The notes: generated from the sequence alone by a model not told the origin. Shown: positions 13,289 to 30,004, counted from the first letter of the stretch. The stretch is DNA of 31,647 nucleotides from Patescibacteria group bacterium (GCA_022710085.1 JAKLHP010000001.1:1-31647), one strand, 5' to 3'. Numbers and translations: made by a program.

Positions 13289-16200
13289 ATGAAATTCACC
13301 CACTTACATGTTCATAGTCATTATAGTTTGCTGGATGGTCTTGCAAAAATAGACGAGCTTCTTGATCGTACTAAAGAATTAGGAATGGATTCCTTGGCTC
13401 TTACTGATCATGGGGTTCTTTACGGAGCGATAGAATTTTTTATTAAAGCTAAGGAGCGAGGCATAAAGCCGATAATCGGATGTGAAATGTATGTGGCACC
13501 TGGCGGATTGCAAAGCAAGAATAATACTGCAATTGATAAAACTAGGAATCATTTAATCTTACTTGTTAGGAATGAAGTTGGATATAAAAATCTGATGAAA
13601 CTTATTTCTATCGCTCATCTTGAAGGTTTTTATTATAAGCCGCGAATCGATCGAGAAACACTCAAAAAATATTCCGAAGGATTGATTGCTTCAAGCGCTT
13701 GCACCGAAGGAGAAATCCCTTCAAGCATCATTAATGGAAACTACGATGAGGCCAGAAAGTTGGCCCAGGAATATGAAAACATTTTCGGAAAAGGAAATTT
13801 TTTCTTGGAGCTTCAAGATCATCCGCAATACAAGAAGCAGCAGCTTGCCAATGAAGGATTGATAAAAATATCAGAAGAAACCGGAATTCCCTTGGTCGCC
13901 ACTTGTGATATCCATTACGTAAAAAAAGAAGATAACACTGCTCAAGATATTTTGCTCTGCATCCAGACCAATCGAAAAGTTTTTGAAAAAGACCGGATGA
14001 ACCTCATGGATTTTGATTTGTCGCTCCGAACTCCGGAAGAAATGAAAAAATCATTCGGGCATATTCCCGGAGCCATTGAAAACACGCAGGTTATCGCAGA
14101 AAGATGCAATTTTGAAATAAAATTGGGAGAAACTCAGCTTCCCCACTATGATGTTCCAGAAGGATTTGTTCCTGAAACATACCTGCGAAAATTAGTCGCA
14201 GAAGGGATGCAAAAAAGATTTGGGAACGATGTAACATTGGTACAGACAGAACGGATGAAATATGAACTTTCCGTGATTGAAAAAACCGGATTTGCTTCCT
14301 ATTTTCTTATTGTCCAGGATTTTGTGAACTGGGCAAAAAGCCAGGGAATCGTTGTCGGACCAGGAAGAGGAAGTGCTGCCGGAAGTTTCATTTCCTATTT
14401 AATCGGAATTACCAATATTGATCCGATAAGATATAACTTGATTTTTGAAAGATTTTTGAATCCAGAAAGAATTTCGATGCCTGATATTGATATGGATTTT
14501 GCCGACGATCGCCGGGACGATGTTCTGGATTATGTCCGAAAAAGATTTGGGCACGATCACGTGGCACAGATTATTACTTTTGGAACTATGGCTGCCCGCG
14601 CCGCCATCCGGGACACAGGAAGAGCTTTGGGATATCCCTATGAACTTTGCGACAAAATTTCTAAAATGATTCCGATGTTTTCTTCCATTGAAGACGCCGT
14701 CGACCAGGTCGTGGAAATTCGAGAGGTTTATCAGAAAGATCCGGCCGTAAAAAAATTGATCGACAGCGCTAAAAAATTAGAAGGGGTAGCGCGTCATGCT
14801 TCAATGCATGCCTGCGGAGTGGTAATTACCAAAAACCCGGTAACAGATTATTCTCCGCTTCAAAGAATAATAGGCAAAGAAGAAGGAACGGTTACCCAAT
14901 ATTCCTCTTCAACCAAGTCAAGCTACGTAGAAAAAATCGGCCTTCTTAAGATGGACTTTTTGGGACTGAAAAACCTTACAATTATGCAAAACACCCTGAA
15001 AATAGTCCACAAAACCAGAGGATTGGATATTGATATCAATGATATTCCTCTGGAGGACGAAGAAACCTTCAGGCTTCTTCAGGAAGCTAGAACTACTGGC
15101 GTATTTCAATTGGAAAGCACTGGGATGAAAAGATATTTAAAACAGCTGAAGCCGACAGTTTTTGAAGATATTATCGCGATGGTAGCTCTTTATCGTCCAG
15201 GACCAATGGATTGGATTCCTAATTTTATTGCCGGAAAGCACGGAACCAGAAAAGTGAATTATCTACATCCGAAGCTAGAACCGACTCTTAGCAATACATA
15301 TGGGGTAGCAGTTTATCAGGAACAGATCATGCAAATCGCTAGAGACTTGGCAGGATTTACCATGGGAGAAGCTGATGTTCTCAGAAAAGCGATGGGGAAA
15401 AAAATTCCCCAGCTGATTAAGGAGCAGAAAATAAAATTTGTTGACGGGTGTGTGAAAAACGGCATCAACCAGAAGGTTGCGGAAAAAGTCTTTGCTTATA
15501 TCGAACCTTTCGCCGGATACGGATTTAACCGGTCACATGCTGCCTGCTATGCGCTTATTGGCTATCAAACCGCTTATCTCAAAGCGCATTATCCGGCAGA
15601 ATTTATGGCTGCACTTCTGACTTCCGACCAAAATGATATTGATCGTGTTGCGATTGAAGTTTTTGAATGCAAGGAGATTGGAATTGAAGTTCTTCCCCCA
15701 AACATCAATGAAAGTTTTGAAGAGTTTGCAGTGGTAAAAGATGAGAGCGGGAAAGAGCTAATCCGCTTCGGACTAAATGCCATCAAAAATGTCGGGGCAA
15801 CTGTCGCTAAGGAAATTGTCGCGGAAAGAAAAAAAAGCGGGAAATACAAAAGCATCGCTGATCTCCTAGAAAGAGTAGCTATTAAAGATTTAAATAAGAA
15901 ATCATTGGAAGCCCTCATCAAGGTTGGTGCCATGAAAGAGCTTGGGGAAAGAAATCAACTTTTAGCCAGCCTGGAAAATATTTTGAACTATTCAAAGAGC
16001 ATTCAAAAAAATAAAAATTCCAACCAGGTAAGTTTATTTGGAATTGAAACTCTTGCTCCAGGAACAGTACAACTGGTTGAATCGGATCCGGCGACGAAAA
16101 AAGAAAGGCTTACCTGGGAAAAAGAGCTTCTGGGATTATATGTCAGTGGCCATCCAGCCGGAGAATATCAGAATTATTTCGACAAAATGGCTGTTCCAAT

Positions 16201-16759
16201 AAGCAGTCTTGAGAAAAAAATGGTCGGGACGAAAATAAGCTTAGGGGGAGTCATCACTAAAGTCCAGAAAATTTTTCTCAAGAACCAAAAGACGATGGCA
16301 TTCGCAACTATTGAAGATCTTCGGGGAAGGATTGAACTTCTAATTTTCCCAAAAGTTTTAGAAAATTCAGAATCAACTTGGCAGGAAGACAAAGTAATTG
16401 TTGCCAGTGGAAACCTCTCGGATAAAGATGGAAATTTTAAGTTACTAGTAGACAGCGTCAAAGAAATAAACCAGCAAGAATTGGAAAATTTCAAAAGAAT
16501 CGAAGTTACTAGAAATAAAAATGGAAACCAAAATGATAAGAAGAGGGAGAAAATAGCAATTATTCTTCCAGAAAAATCCGACAAGGAAATTTTTAAAAAA
16601 CTTTCGGAATTTTTTGATAAATGTGAAAGCGGAGAAATAAAAATATATATTAAAATAAAAAATAGCAAGCTTGAAACTCCCTACTCCATAAAAAATACTC
16701 CGGATATTGAATCGTCCATAAAAAATATTATTCCCGAGGTAAAAATCGAAACTTTTTAA
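13289..16759 (+). CDS. dnaE: DNA polymerase III alpha subunit
   Basis: PHP domain HLHVHSHYSLLDG, GRGSAAGS, RISMPDIDMDF, KMDFLGLKNL, GYGFNRSHA, C-terminal OB fold. Confidence 0.98.
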   Translation: MKFTHLHVHSHYSLLDGLAKIDELLDRTKELGMDSLALTDHGVLYGAIEFFIKAKERGIKPIIGCEMYVAPGGLQSKNNTAIDKTRNHLILLVRNEVGYKNLMKLISIAHLEGFYYKPRIDRETLKKYSEGLIASSACTEGEIPSSIINGNYDEARKLAQEYENIFGKGNFFLELQDHPQYKKQQLANEGLIKISEETGIPLVATCDIHYVKKEDNTAQDILLCIQTNRKVFEKDRMNLMDFDLSLRTPEEMKKSFGHIPGAIENTQVIAERCNFEIKLGETQLPHYDVPEGFVPETYLRKLVAEGMQKRFGNDVTLVQTERMKYELSVIEKTGFASYFLIVQDFVNWAKSQGIVVGPGRGSAAGSFISYLIGITNIDPIRYNLIFERFLNPERISMPDIDMDFADDRRDDVLDYVRKRFGHDHVAQIITFGTMAARAAIRDTGRALGYPYELCDKISKMIPMFSSIEDAVDQVVEIREVYQKDPAVKKLIDSAKKLEGVARHASMHACGVVITKNPVTDYSPLQRIIGKEEGTVTQYSSSTKSSYVEKIGLLKMDFLGLKNLTIMQNTLKIVHKTRGLDIDINDIPLEDEETFRLLQEARTTGVFQLESTGMKRYLKQLKPTVFEDIIAMVALYRPGPMDWIPNFIAGKHGTRKVNYLHPKLEPTLSNTYGVAVYQEQIMQIARDLAGFTMGEADVLRKAMGKKIPQLIKEQKIKFVDGCVKNGINQKVAEKVFAYIEPFAGYGFNRSHAACYALIGYQTAYLKAHYPAEFMAALLTSDQNDIDRVAIEVFECKEIGIEVLPPNINESFEEFAVVKDESGKELIRFGLNAIKNVGATVAKEIVAERKKSGKYKSIADLLERVAIKDLNKKSLEALIKVGAMKELGERNQLLASLENILNYSKSIQKNKNSNQVSLFGIETLAPGTVQLVESDPATKKERLTWEKELLGLYVSGHPAGEYQNYFDKMAVPISSLEKKMVGTKISLGGVITKVQKIFLKNQKTMAFATIEDLRGRIELLIFPKVLENSESTWQEDKVIVASGNLSDKDGNFKLLVDSVKEINQQELENFKRIEVTRNKNGNQNDKKREKIAIILPEKSDKEIFKKLSEFFDKCESGEIKIYIKIKNSKLETPYSIKNTPDIESSIKNIIPEVKIETF

Positions 16760-16764
16760 TTTCC

Positions 16765-16793
16765 TTGCTATTTATCATTATTTTTTTTATTAT
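16765..16793 (+). promoter_or_regulatory. Promoter of the thrS leader
   Basis: TTGCTA, 17 nt, TATTAT; predicted start ~16800, just before Stem I. Confidence 0.6.
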
Positions 16794-16800
16794 AATAAAT

Positions 16801-16995
16801 GAAGCAGTGACGCAGACTAACCAACTGCTGAGCTTCCGCAAGCTACCGGCGGTATAGGTTGCAGAAAGTGTCCCATCAGTCGCGACTGGCGGGAAAATTG
16901 GGTGGAACCACGGGTTTAAAAAAACAACCCCGTCCCAAGAATCTTTTTCCGAATTTTCGGAATTTCAAAAGATTTTTATGACGGGGTTTTGTTTT
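16801..16995 (+). promoter_or_regulatory. Transcriptional T-box riboswitch (Thr) with ultrashort Stem I
   Basis: T-box AATTGGGTGGAACCACGG (16896-16913); antiterminator GGG-TGGAACC-ACGGG...CCCGTCCC; mutually exclusive terminator AACCCCGTC/GACGGGGTT plus T run; Stem I 16801-16836 with ACC in its apical loop; upstream of thrS. Confidence 0.88.
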
Positions 16996-16997
16996 AG

Positions 16998-17177
16998 CTA
17001 TATACACATCGGACAGATTTGAATTTCCTTTCCGCATTCAGACTTCTTTGCCGGAACAGAAACGTCTATTCCAACATTGTGTGCAGTTATGGAAGTGGCT
17101 AATTCTTCGTGTATTTTTCTTGGTTCGGTTATGATTTCTCCTTCAAATATAATTTCTCTCCCGCTTTGACACTTCAC
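16998..17177 (-). CDS. 59-aa Cys-rich (possible Zn-ribbon) protein antisense within the thrS leader
   Basis: GTG start; MKCQSGREIIFEGEIITEPRKIHEELATSITAHNVGIDVSVPAKKSECGKEIQICPMCI*; purine-rich like the real genes here; GGGGAGG at 17209-17203; start site uncertain. Confidence 0.55.
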   Translation of the reverse strand: MKCQSGREIIFEGEIITEPRKIHEELATSITAHNVGIDVSVPAKKSECGKEIQICPMCI

Positions 17178-17243
17178 GGTTATATTTGTTTTTGCCCTCT
17201 ACCTCCCCATGTTTGATAAACTATAATTAAAATTAAAAATATT

Positions 17244-19049
17244 ATGTCAACAAAAAACAACCTTGAAACAATCCGCCATTCACTCGCTCATGTCCTAGCA
17301 ACAGCCGTTTTGGAAATGTTTCCAGAATCAAAATTCGGAACCGGACCGGCCACGGAAAACGGATTCTTCTATGATTTTGATTTGCCCAGAACTTTAATTC
17401 CGGAAGATCTTCCCATTTTGGAAGAAAAGATGAAAAAAATAATTGAGAAAAATTATCCTATTGAAAAAGCCGAGGCACCAATTGAAAAAGCTCTGGATGA
17501 TTTTGCTAAAGCCCAGCAAGGATACAAGGTCGAGATTATAAATGACCTGAAAAAAGAAGGAAATGAAAGAGTTTCAGTTTACAAAATTGACGGATTCGTG
17601 GATCTTTGTTCTGGACCGCATATTGATTCCACCGGAGAAATCGATCCGGAATCTTTCAAATTGCAAAGAATTTCCGGAGTTTATTGGAAAAGTGATGAAA
17701 AGAACAAACAACTCCAGAGAATCTATGGATTGGCATTTGAAAATAAGAAAGAACTGGATAAATATCTGAAACGGATAGAGGAAGCAGAAAAAAGAGACCA
17801 CAGAAAATTAGGCAAAGAGCTGGAACTGTTCATGATTGACTCTACCGTCGGTCTGGGACTAGTCATGTGGCAGCCAAAAGGAGCATTATTATGGAGAATA
17901 ATGGAGGACTTTTGGTACCAGGAACATTTGAAGAATGAATATGAATTGGTGCGTTCTCCCCATATCGGAAGCAGGAATTTATGGGAAAAATCGGGCCACT
18001 GGGGATTTTACAGTGAAAGTATGTATCCGCCCTTAGAAGTCGGAAGGAGTCTCAATGAACTCAAAGAAACCAAAGATGAAAAAAAAAGTTTCGCAAAAGA
18101 AGAATATCTTTTGAAACCGATGAACTGTCCTTTTCATGTGATACTTTACAAATCAAGAATGAGAAGCTACCGAGATCTTCCTTTGCGCTGGGCAGAATGT
18201 GGAACAGTATATCGATATGAAAAATCAGGAGAACTTTCCGGACTGACTAGGGTACGCGGTTTCACTCAGGATGATGCACACATAATTTGTAGTAAGGAAC
18301 AAGTCAAAGATGAACTAAAAAAAGTGACTGACTTTATCGTCTATATGCTTTCCACTTTCGGATTCAAAGAATATAACGTCTACCTTTCTCTACGCGATCC
18401 AAAAGACAAAGATAAATATGCTGGAAACGATGAGGGTTGGGAATTTACTGAGAAAATCCTGGAAGAAGTAGCTCAAGAGAAAAAATTGAATTATAGAAGA
18501 GAAAAAGGGGAGGCCGCTTTCTACGGACCGAAATTAGACTTCAAGATAAAGGATTGCTTGGGACGAGAATGGCAGTGTTCAACCTTGCAGTTTGACTTCA
18601 ATCTTCCTGAAAGATTTGATCTGACTTTCATAAACAAAGAAGGCAGGAAAGAAAGACCTTATATGCTTCATCGGGCTTTATTTGGATCTTTCGAAAGATT
18701 TATCGGAGTTCTCATCGAACACTTTGCCGGAGCTTTTCCGCTTTGGATATCCCCAATCCAAATTGAAATTATTCCGGTTTCGGAAAAATTCAATGATTAT
18801 GCGAAAAAAATAAATTCGCTTCTTTTGGCTGAAAATATCCGCTCAGAAATAAATGACAAAAATGAATCTTTGGGAAAACGCATCAGCGAATCGGAAAAAC
18901 AAAAAATTCCATACATTTTGGTAGTAGGAGAAAAAGAAGAAAAAGCCGAATCAGTCGCAGTCCGAAGCAGGGATAGCAAAGAGCAAAACGTATTAAAGCT
19001 GAATGAATTCATTGAAAAGATTAAAAAAGAAATAGCTGAAAAAAAATAA
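17244..19049 (+). CDS. thrS: Threonine--tRNA ligase (no N-terminal TGS domain)
   Basis: RHSLAH, DLCSGPH editing motifs; KPMNCP, RVRGFTQDDAH, HRALFGSFERF. Confidence 0.98.
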   Translation: MSTKNNLETIRHSLAHVLATAVLEMFPESKFGTGPATENGFFYDFDLPRTLIPEDLPILEEKMKKIIEKNYPIEKAEAPIEKALDDFAKAQQGYKVEIINDLKKEGNERVSVYKIDGFVDLCSGPHIDSTGEIDPESFKLQRISGVYWKSDEKNKQLQRIYGLAFENKKELDKYLKRIEEAEKRDHRKLGKELELFMIDSTVGLGLVMWQPKGALLWRIMEDFWYQEHLKNEYELVRSPHIGSRNLWEKSGHWGFYSESMYPPLEVGRSLNELKETKDEKKSFAKEEYLLKPMNCPFHVILYKSRMRSYRDLPLRWAECGTVYRYEKSGELSGLTRVRGFTQDDAHIICSKEQVKDELKKVTDFIVYMLSTFGFKEYNVYLSLRDPKDKDKYAGNDEGWEFTEKILEEVAQEKKLNYRREKGEAAFYGPKLDFKIKDCLGREWQCSTLQFDFNLPERFDLTFINKEGRKERPYMLHRALFGSFERFIGVLIEHFAGAFPLWISPIQIEIIPVSEKFNDYAKKINSLLLAENIRSEINDKNESLGKRISESEKQKIPYILVVGEKEEKAESVAVRSRDSKEQNVLKLNEFIEKIKKEIAEKK

Positions 19050-29290: not shown

Positions 29291-29318
29291 AAAAAGCGCC
29301 CTCTAGGCGCTTTTTTAA
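29289..29318. terminator. Terminator after rplA
   Basis: AAAAAAGCGCC-CTCTA-GGCGCTTTTTT. Confidence 0.85.
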
Positions 29319-29323
29319 AAAAA

Positions 29324-30004
29324 TTATCCAAATATTATTTTCATTCCCGGCCCCATCGTCGAACAGATAGATACGGAAATTATGTATTTTCCTTTCGCTA
29401 CCTGAGGCTTAGCTTTCTGAAGGGATCCGAGAAATGCTTCAATATTTTCTTTGAGCTTATTTTCATCAAAAGAAACTTTTCCAACCAGCTGATGAACATT
29501 AGCCCCATCATCATTTTTAAAACTTACTTTTCCTTTTTTAAGCATTTCTACAGTTTCTTTTATTTTTTCAGTAACAGTCTCGGTTTTCGGACTTGGCATA
29601 AGGCCGCGCGGACCAAGAATTTTGGCTACCTGAGCAAGCTTCGGCATCATTTCCGGAGTAGCTACCAGGATATCAAATTGAGAAATTTTATTATTTTTAA
29701 TCTTTTCAATCATCTCTTCTCCACCAACAATATCCGCTCCAGCATCCTTAGCTTCTTTGACCTTTGTTGAAGTTATAACTGCCACTTTTTTGGTTTTTCC
29801 GGTTCCGTGAGGAAGTACAACTGCTCCTCGAACCTGCTGTTCACCTTTCTTGGGATCAATTGAGAGCTTTACGTGAATTTCCACTGATTCATCAAATTTA
29901 GCAATTTTATTTTCCTTGATTACCTTTATGGCTTCCTCGATGGAATATTTTTTGTCTTTTTCAATCTTCTCAAAAACCTTCTTATATTTTTTACTTCTAA
30001 ACAT
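29324..30004 (-). CDS. rplA: 50S ribosomal protein L1 (likely start MFRSKK at 30004)
   Basis: KFDESVEIHVKL, VRGAVVLPHGTGK, LGPRGLMPSPK, STMGPG. Confidence 0.97.
   Translation of the reverse strand: MFRSKKYKKVFEKIEKDKKYSIEEAIKVIKENKIAKFDESVEIHVKLSIDPKKGEQQVRGAVVLPHGTGKTKKVAVITSTKVKEAKDAGADIVGGEEMIEKIKNNKISQFDILVATPEMMPKLAQVAKILGPRGLMPSPKTETVTEKIKETVEMLKKGKVSFKNDDGANVHQLVGKVSFDENKLKENIEAFLGSLQKAKPQVAKGKYIISVSICSTMGPGMKIIFG

Follow-up and report, generated by a model that had tools for sequence, protein, structure and literature searches.

Can a T-box with an ultrashort Stem I control transcription? Transcriptional T-boxes generally require a long Stem I with a distal double-T-loop motif (Zhang 2020 review, PMC7583486). 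An ultrashort Stem I is a feature of translational T-boxes (PMC7583486), and all the T-boxes of this kind characterized so far are translational (PMC7583486, PMC10482949). According to the current model, a kinetic transcriptional T-box needs the distal platform of Stem I for fast tRNA capture, and T-boxes that have no distal platform rely on Stem II and control translation (PMC7583486, PMC10482949, PMC11297988). Four T-box classes were defined in 2023, of which class III combines a short Stem I and a 5-6-nt apical loop with a Stem II that is required (PMC10482949); class III ileS T-boxes are cited from Mycobacterium tuberculosis, M. smegmatis and Nocardia farcinica (Sherwood et al. 2015, cited in PMC7583486). 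A truncated Stem I barely binds tRNA when Stem II is missing (PMC7583486), and in 2024 an M. tuberculosis ileS T-box with a shortened Stem II was reported to have no measurable tRNA binding (PMC11297988).

The leader of a threonyl-tRNA synthetase gene (thrS) in a CPR bacterium raises this question, as it has neither the distal platform nor Stem II and yet carries a strong terminator, contrary to current T-box models. It lies within a 31,647-nt stretch of DNA from a Patescibacteria group bacterium (GCA_022710085.1 JAKLHP010000001.1:1-31647), which as a whole is called the window here. The original prediction described the leader as a hybrid that joins an ultrashort Stem I to a terminator. Our analysis points the same way at the level of sequence, through the match of specifier and discriminator to the tRNA, covariation, promoters and the tracking of genes by codons. 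We consider it very probable that the leader is a threonine-specific T-box regulating thrS by transcription attenuation, in which a minimal decoding module is joined to a classic terminator. All of the features predicted for 16765-16995 are present (Table 1), save for the Stem II and second specifier readings. In the searchable literature, we found no paper joining T-boxes with CPR or Patescibacteria, and the layout of ultrashort Stem I and terminator without Stem II is not described in the literature searched.

The host is a CPR bacterium with a tiny genome, Parcubacteria/Moraniibacteriota-like, whose assembly consists of 99 contigs with a total of 760 kb and a completeness of 94%. Its DNA sequencing runs give an anaerobic digester metagenome as the origin. 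The closest named records of the ThrRS are MAGs of Candidatus Moraniibacteriota, Paceibacterota and Parcubacteria, and outside the CPR its nearest relatives in our genome collection come from Bacteroidota, with 47-50% identity. Pfam gives no TGS domain in the 601-aa ThrRS (17244-19049).

Table 1. The thrS leader and its surroundings, in window coordinates
Feature	Position	Strand	Description
dnaE	13289-16759		5' neighbour of the leader; ends 41 nt before Stem I
Sigma-70-like promoter	16765-16793	+	-35 TTGCTA (16765-16770); 17-nt spacer; -10 TATTAT (16788-16793)
Ultrashort Stem I, 36 nt	16801-16836	+	GAAGC-AGUGAC-GCAG-[ACUAACCAA]-CUGC-UGA-GCUUC
Stem I base helix	16801-16805 with 16832-16836		GAAGC/GCUUC
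K-turn-type internal loop	16806-16811 opposite 16829-16831		AGUGAC opposite UGA
Stem I upper helix, 4 bp	16812-16815 with 16825-16828		GCAG/CUGC
Apical loop, 9 nt	16816-16824		ACUAACCAA
Specifier ACC (Thr)	16820-16822	+	followed by A16823; predicted to pair with the GGU anticodon of tRNA-Thr
Stem IIA/B pseudoknot	16837-16862	+	directly after Stem I, with no preceding Stem II/S-turn
IIA	16837-16839 with 16849-16851		CGC with GCG
IIB	16842-16847 with 16857-16862		loop GCUACC with GGUUGC; one U.U mismatch
Purine-rich linker	16863-16871	+	AGAAAGUGU; from RF00230 and R1 alignments
Stem III	16872-16880 with 16885-16893	+	AAAA directly 3'; from RF00230 and R1 alignments
Antiterminator	16898-16938	+	T-box core UUGGGUGGAACCACGGG
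UUGGGUGGAACCACGG	16898-16913		high posterior probability in RF00230/R1 alignments
Helix A1	16898-16902 with 16934-16938		
T-box bulge, 7 nt	16903-16909		UGGAACC
Helix A2	16910-16914 with 16929-16933		
Intrinsic terminator hairpin, 59 nt	16928-16986	+	CCCCGUC...GACGGGG; UUUUGUUUU at 16987-16995
Spacer, terminator to thrS start, 248 nt	16996-17243		
59-codon ORF with cysteine(s)	16998-17177	-	antisense, between terminator and thrS
Promoter-like site in spacer	17213-17240	+	
Promoter-like site in spacer	17250-17223	-	score 10 of 12
thrS, threonyl-tRNA synthetase, 601 aa	17244-19049	+	regulated gene; Pfam tRNA_SAD, tRNA-synt_2b, HGTP_anticodon

A scan of the window with Rfam at gathering thresholds returns three tRNAs and nothing else. 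Below the thresholds, cmsearch with the T-box model RF00230 finds a match at 16798-16940 (+) that spans the whole model length and scores 41.5 bits, less than half of the 93 bits of the gathering threshold, which is the curated cut-off. The E-value is 8.1e-8 when a 601-nt region is compared with all 4227 families and 2.4e-8 at whole-genome scale. It had been suspected that standard covariance models may miss such leaders, and this is what happens: at the curated cut-off, RF00230 reports neither this leader nor any of its relatives in 61 related genomes of the order, 45 of which are matched at E <= 0.001. As a consequence, the curated threshold of Rfam, and the databases built on Rfam, leave the T-box regulons of these organisms entirely undetected; the class II model of TBDB is applied only to Actinobacteria and to class I matches with a truncated Stem I (PMC7778990). 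A further RF00230 match in the window, at 29291-29520 (-) with 13.8 bits and an E-value of 0.35, is probably noise, lying mostly within an ORF where our own model, R1 (see below), is silent.

In the RF00230 alignment, the K-turn base of Stem I, IIA/B, Stem III and the T-box/antiterminator all have high posterior probability, and the Stem II positions are deleted. Only 5 nt stand in place of 72 distal Stem I positions of the model, in line with the original prediction that the distal T-loop platform is missing: there is no long Stem I with a platform of interdigitated T-loops to receive the tRNA elbow.

A normal Stem I might still be sought further 5', if transcription were to start upstream. 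In the window, however, 7 nt separate the end of the -10 element from the Stem I helix, and dnaE ends at 16759. This arrangement recurs across the order. Within the 50 nt 5' of the leader, the best promoter score averages 9.6 out of 12 in 30 thrS leaders, compared with 6.3 in 120 control windows, and a score of at least 10 is reached by 16 of the 30 leaders as against one of the 120 controls. Across the thrS leaders, 7-21 nt lie between the end of the -10 element and the first helix of Stem I. Because these promoters adjoin Stem I, they leave no room for a longer one, and the position of the -10 element implies that transcription should start at, or just before, Stem I.

What remains is a short hairpin with an apical specifier and no distal platform, in which the loop has 9 nt rather than 5-6. 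The predicted form of this Stem I, a K-turn base and a 4-bp hairpin that presents ACC at its apex, is borne out both by covariation and by its de novo recovery with RNAalifold. Across 30 thrS leaders (alignment A2), compensatory changes are seen in all nine Stem I pairs, and the GA/GA signature of the K-turn is present in about 27 leaders. The specifier columns hold a fixed position and read ACC in 28 of the 30 leaders and ACU in the other two, followed by A in most leaders and by G in three. Phylum-wide, thrS leaders have ACC, ACU or ACA, all of them threonine codons, at the same position in the loop. The loop had also been thought to hold a second threonine codon, ACU (ACT in the DNA), at 16817-16819. 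Relatives read AUU, CUU, CCU or CCC there, and because the position varies we do not regard it as a specifier. A single-sequence minimum free energy (MFE) fold of the leader prefers another pairing for 16824-16851, and Stem I is absent from that fold; we ruled this pairing out, as the same-genus genome G002 does not conserve it.

To describe the family, we built a covariance model, R1, from six thrS leaders. It finds matches in 93 of 151 genomes of the order, some of them from the same genus or family and overlooked by RF00230, and its best 30 matches in the order are all located 5' of a thrS homologue. In the A2 alignment of 30 leaders, 95.1% of cells pair, compared with 46% after a one-column shift of the partners; compensatory changes are seen in 28 of the 30 pairs, and none of 500 shuffles reaches the observed covariation score, all for an alignment that compares related sequences and is fitted to the R1 model. 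Because of this fitting, RNAalifold was also run on another alignment, A6, for which plain MAFFT was applied to 29 leaders, each represented by its first 70 nt. The identical Stem I is recovered de novo, with double changes in 9/9 pairs, and so is the IIB helix. Two genomes of the same genus, G001 and G002, keep the structure through compensatory changes, and their ThrRS identity is only 44-56%.

Beyond the order, R1 has a match in 20 of 150 sampled genomes of the phylum (E <= 1e-6), and of the 11 phylum-wide matches that were examined eight lie upstream of thrS. A set of 12 upstream regions matched by R1 all belong to the ThrRS loci most similar to that of the window and come from CPR-type MAGs, a few of them with dubious labels. 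R1 gave no match in about 58 regions upstream of thrS that come from phyla outside the CPR, Bacteroidota among them.

Downstream of Stem I, the original prediction had listed a putative Stem II, IIA/B and Stem III. The IIA/B pseudoknot and Stem III both hold up, by covariation, and Stem II does not. The gap between Stem I and Stem III is 35 nt, all of it taken up by the pseudoknot and the linker, which leaves no Stem II in the leader. A Stem II with an S-turn is likewise absent from 29 of the 30 thrS leaders, the remaining one (L078) having an unrelated insertion. There is thus no class III-type Stem II S-turn to buttress the codon-anticodon helix, and without Stem II this element is reduced even further than the ileS class of Actinobacteria. 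For the pseudoknot, IIA covaries across the family (CGC/GCG, UGU/ACA, UGC/GCA), and the IIB pairing is seen in 26 distinct sequence versions among the thrS leaders, with a mean duplex energy of -5.6 kcal/mol, where shuffled partners give -1.6 and non-cognate ones -2.3. In the window sequence alone, the IIB signal is weak (-6.5 versus -4.3, with 12% of shuffles equal), so that it is family covariation that speaks for IIA/B. In Stem III, all eight pairs covary (A2).

The discriminator end of the leader conforms to known T-boxes. The conserved T-box sequence AGGGUGGNACCGCG forms a 7-nt bulge in the antiterminator helix; helices A1 and A2 covary in A2, and the bulge reads UGGAACC in 30/30 thrS leaders. 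A canonical antiterminator with a UGGA bulge able to pair with a U73 tRNA had been predicted, and the genome supplies the tRNA. Its three tRNA-Thr genes, with anticodons CGU, UGU and GGU, each have 7/7 acceptor pairs and U73, a base found in just 6 of the 39 tRNAs of the genome, those for Thr, Cys and Gly only. The fourth base of UGGN is thus complementary to the discriminator base. Since a tRNA-Thr(GGU) with U73 is present, ACC would pair with GGU and UGGA with 3'-UCCA, which gives two independent matches between the leader and the tRNA-Thr of its genome.

Antiterminator and terminator share sequence, since the 3' strand of the former (16929-16938) lies inside the 5' arm of the latter (16928-16986, followed by UUUUGUUUU), and the two folds are therefore mutually exclusive, as had been proposed. 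The predicted energies are -27.2 kcal/mol for the terminator and -9.3 kcal/mol for the antiterminator domain, and the MFE fold of the whole leader contains the terminator (z = -4.1). As the terminator is the stronger of the two and wins this fold, the default state should be off. Equivalent terminator hairpins with a U-run occur in 10 other thrS leaders.

A classic terminator is missing from about 19 of the 30 thrS leaders of the order. Six of these terminator-less leaders were folded (L085, L088, L091 from G004, L094 from G003, L098 and L100), and they form a different long helix, in which the 5' strand and loop of Stem III pair with the segment just 5' of the U-run. This helix encloses the antiterminator and does not compete with its 3' strand. 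With two types of helix among the thrS leaders, one aptamer thus serves two different expression platforms.

If the short hairpin decodes tRNA, its codon should follow the downstream gene. We collected 62 leaders in the order and sorted them by downstream gene (35 ileS, 9 glyS, 8 thrS, 5 aspS, 3 trpD and 2 cysK). Each gene class has its cognate codon in the loop of a short 5' hairpin: ACC/ACU for thrS, GGC/GGU for glyS, GAC/AAC (Asn) for aspS, UGG for trpD, UGC for cysK and AUC for ileS. Hairpins were identified by a rule (a stem of 4 bp, a loop of 5-10 nt and a codon that stops 1-2 nt short of the 3' strand), because the R1 alignment of leaders that contain Stem II gives an inconsistent Stem I. 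Under this rule, the codon fits the gene in 44 of 62 leaders compared with 25.2 +/- 2.9 for shuffled labels, and none of 5000 label shuffles reaches 44, a figure that overstates the significance because the leaders are related and not independent. Specifier and regulated gene therefore agree in homologues, with ACC before thrS in the window, ACC/ACU in 30/30 thrS leaders and the 44/62 over six gene classes.

Some of these leaders deserve mention in their own right. Three of the five aspS T-boxes (L010, L034 and L035) have AAC (Asn) and not GAC in the apical loop, which would fit a non-discriminating AspRS regulated by the charging of tRNA-Asn. Within the same CPR order, T-boxes with UGC precede cysK-like genes and others with UGG precede trpD-like genes (L037, L039, L038, L044 and L048), so the reduced T-box design extends beyond aminoacyl-tRNA synthetase genes.

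The genome also has a second T-box, 5' of ileS (L001 1464-1660; contig C3 of the host assembly G000, about 13477-13673). Its Stem I is AGAGAU-CUAUCA-AUCUCU (L001 1464-1481), with the loop CUAUCA. It is class III-like, with an extra hairpin, a Stem II with GAAGAA...AGUAGAA, IIA/B, a UGGU bulge and a terminator-like 3' end, and the Rfam alignment mislabels its Stem II as Stem I. The ileS T-boxes of the order share with the thrS leader the K-turn and short hairpin, the apical specifier (AUC, in a hexaloop), the discriminator and terminator-like 3' ends. They differ from it in keeping Stem II with the S-turn signature GAAGAA...AGUAGAA, a layout that resembles the actinobacterial class III, whereas the thrS leaders have lost Stem II.

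Taken together, these features suggest how the switch may work; we infer tRNA binding, charge sensing and termination as follows. Transcription would begin a few nucleotides 5' of Stem I. Bent by the K-turn at its base, this 36-nt hairpin would offer ACC and the 3' purine to the GGU anticodon of tRNA-Thr, and would be followed directly by the IIA/B pseudoknot, then Stem III, then the discriminator. When the tRNA is uncharged, its free 3'-UCCA would pair with UGGA in the bulge and stabilize the weak antiterminator against the stronger terminator, and RNA polymerase would continue towards thrS. With a charged tRNA, or none, the terminator would form and transcription would end at 16987-16995.

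The spacer between the terminator and thrS is the source of the alternative that survives best, though we think it unlikely: that the T-box is decaying or decoupled, with an antisense gene inserted and thrS on its own promoter, so that the leader merely ends dnaE transcription or acts as a two-way terminator. The spacer of 248 nt, the 59-codon minus-strand ORF and the promoter-like site at 17213-17240 (+) mean that thrS could be transcribed independently, also or instead. Another promoter-like site (17250-17223) faces the opposite way, and as an A-run 5' of the terminator hairpin becomes a U-run in minus-strand RNA, termination may occur in both directions. Any read-through from the T-box would have the antisense unit to traverse, or thrS may use a second promoter. 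In the same genus, G001 and G002 have similarly long spacers, and that of G003 is 47 nt. Relatives with long spacers likewise have Cys-rich ORFs on the minus strand: where the spacer exceeds 250 nt, its longest ORF is on this strand in 7/8 cases, with cysteines mostly in CxxC pairs and no detectable sequence similarity among the ORFs.

Set against decoupling, all functional positions of the leader are intact, it has a promoter of its own, and its specifier and discriminator still fit tRNA-Thr. G001 and G002, with spacers equally long, have kept the structure by compensatory changes, and the minus-strand ORF of the window has no Pfam match and no homologue in 60 relatives. We also considered whether the spacer might contain a degenerate TGS domain, and dropped the idea as ThrRS measures 582-606 aa across the order even where the spacer is short.

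A genuine T-box that acts on translation or mRNA stability, in the manner of the actinobacterial ultrashort ileS class, is more doubtful still, and we give it little credence. The precedent of the characterized ultrashort-Stem-I T-boxes favours it, as do the many related thrS leaders without a compact classic terminator. In the window, however, a GC-clamped hairpin of -27 kcal/mol is directly followed by UUUUGUUUU, and ten relatives share the hairpin and U-run. The thrS start lies 248 nt further on in AU-rich sequence, with no Shine-Dalgarno element before it to sequester, and instead of a sequestrator/anti-sequestrator pair the leader has a terminator and U-run. Chance resemblance or a mis-called Stem I, with a long Stem I upstream or the true specifier elsewhere, would find some encouragement in the RF00230 score below the gathering threshold and in the single-sequence fold of 16824-16851, but is scarcely credible given the space between the end of dnaE at 16759 and Stem I being filled by the promoter (16765-16793), a Stem I that covaries and is recovered de novo, an alternative pairing that is not kept in G002 and a threonine codon whose position is fixed phylum-wide.

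Transcription attenuation by a threonine-specific T-box is thus the reading we prefer, and it leads to the further question of how so small an RNA would hold its tRNA. The chances seem even that the Patescibacteria thrS leaders represent a fifth T-box architecture, an RNA-only co-transcriptional switch. On this reading, a short Stem I with an apical specifier is combined with IIA/B only, dispensing with both elbow platform and Stem II S-turn, and a kinetic T-box decision based on a terminator would need no contacts other than the loop-loop helix of codon and anticodon and the helix of NCCA and bulge. An RNA that has neither platform nor Stem II might not bind tRNA alone, because short-Stem-I T-boxes need Stem II according to the literature (PMC7583486, PMC11297988). 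Candidates for what could hold the complex together, in place of elbow platform or S-turn, are a pre-organized loop-loop contact, docking of the pseudoknot or some protein. Should the RNA-only switch be true, it would be the smallest natural tRNA-sensing module, compact enough to serve as a scaffold in structural studies and in the engineering of tRNA sensors; should the RNA not bind tRNA alone, this would point to a helper factor in CPR bacteria.

How does the leader compare with the T-boxes already known? Its closest counterpart in Stem I is the actinobacterial class III ileS T-box, with which it shares a K-turn and short hairpin, an apical specifier followed by a purine and the absence of a double-T-loop platform. 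Both also have the IIA/B pseudoknot and Stem III, and in both the discriminator is canonical and its bulge reads UGGN. For the actinobacterial class, a long Stem II that contains an S-turn is indispensable (PMC10482949, PMC11297988), whereas the thrS leader has no Stem II; that class sequesters the Shine-Dalgarno sequence and controls translation, whereas the thrS leader has an intrinsic terminator, 248 nt away from the start codon; and that class regulates ileS through a 5-6-nt loop, whereas here, in Patescibacteria/CPR, the gene is thrS and the loop has 7-9 nt.

In its output, the leader resembles class I (Bacillus subtilis thrS and tyrS), having in common with it the K-turn at the base of Stem I, IIA/B, Stem III, the T-box sequence, the competition of antiterminator and terminator and a discriminator that covaries with position 73 of the tRNA. 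The type of gene, thrS, is shared as well. The leader scores 41.5 bits with RF00230, for which the cut-off is 93 bits. The class II glycine T-box (B. subtilis glyQS) is also transcriptional and also without Stem II. It has a long Stem I with an elbow platform and no IIA/B (PMC11297988), and the thrS leader is the opposite combination. The thrS leader, whose Stem I is that of class III and whose output is that of class I, fits none of the four classes.
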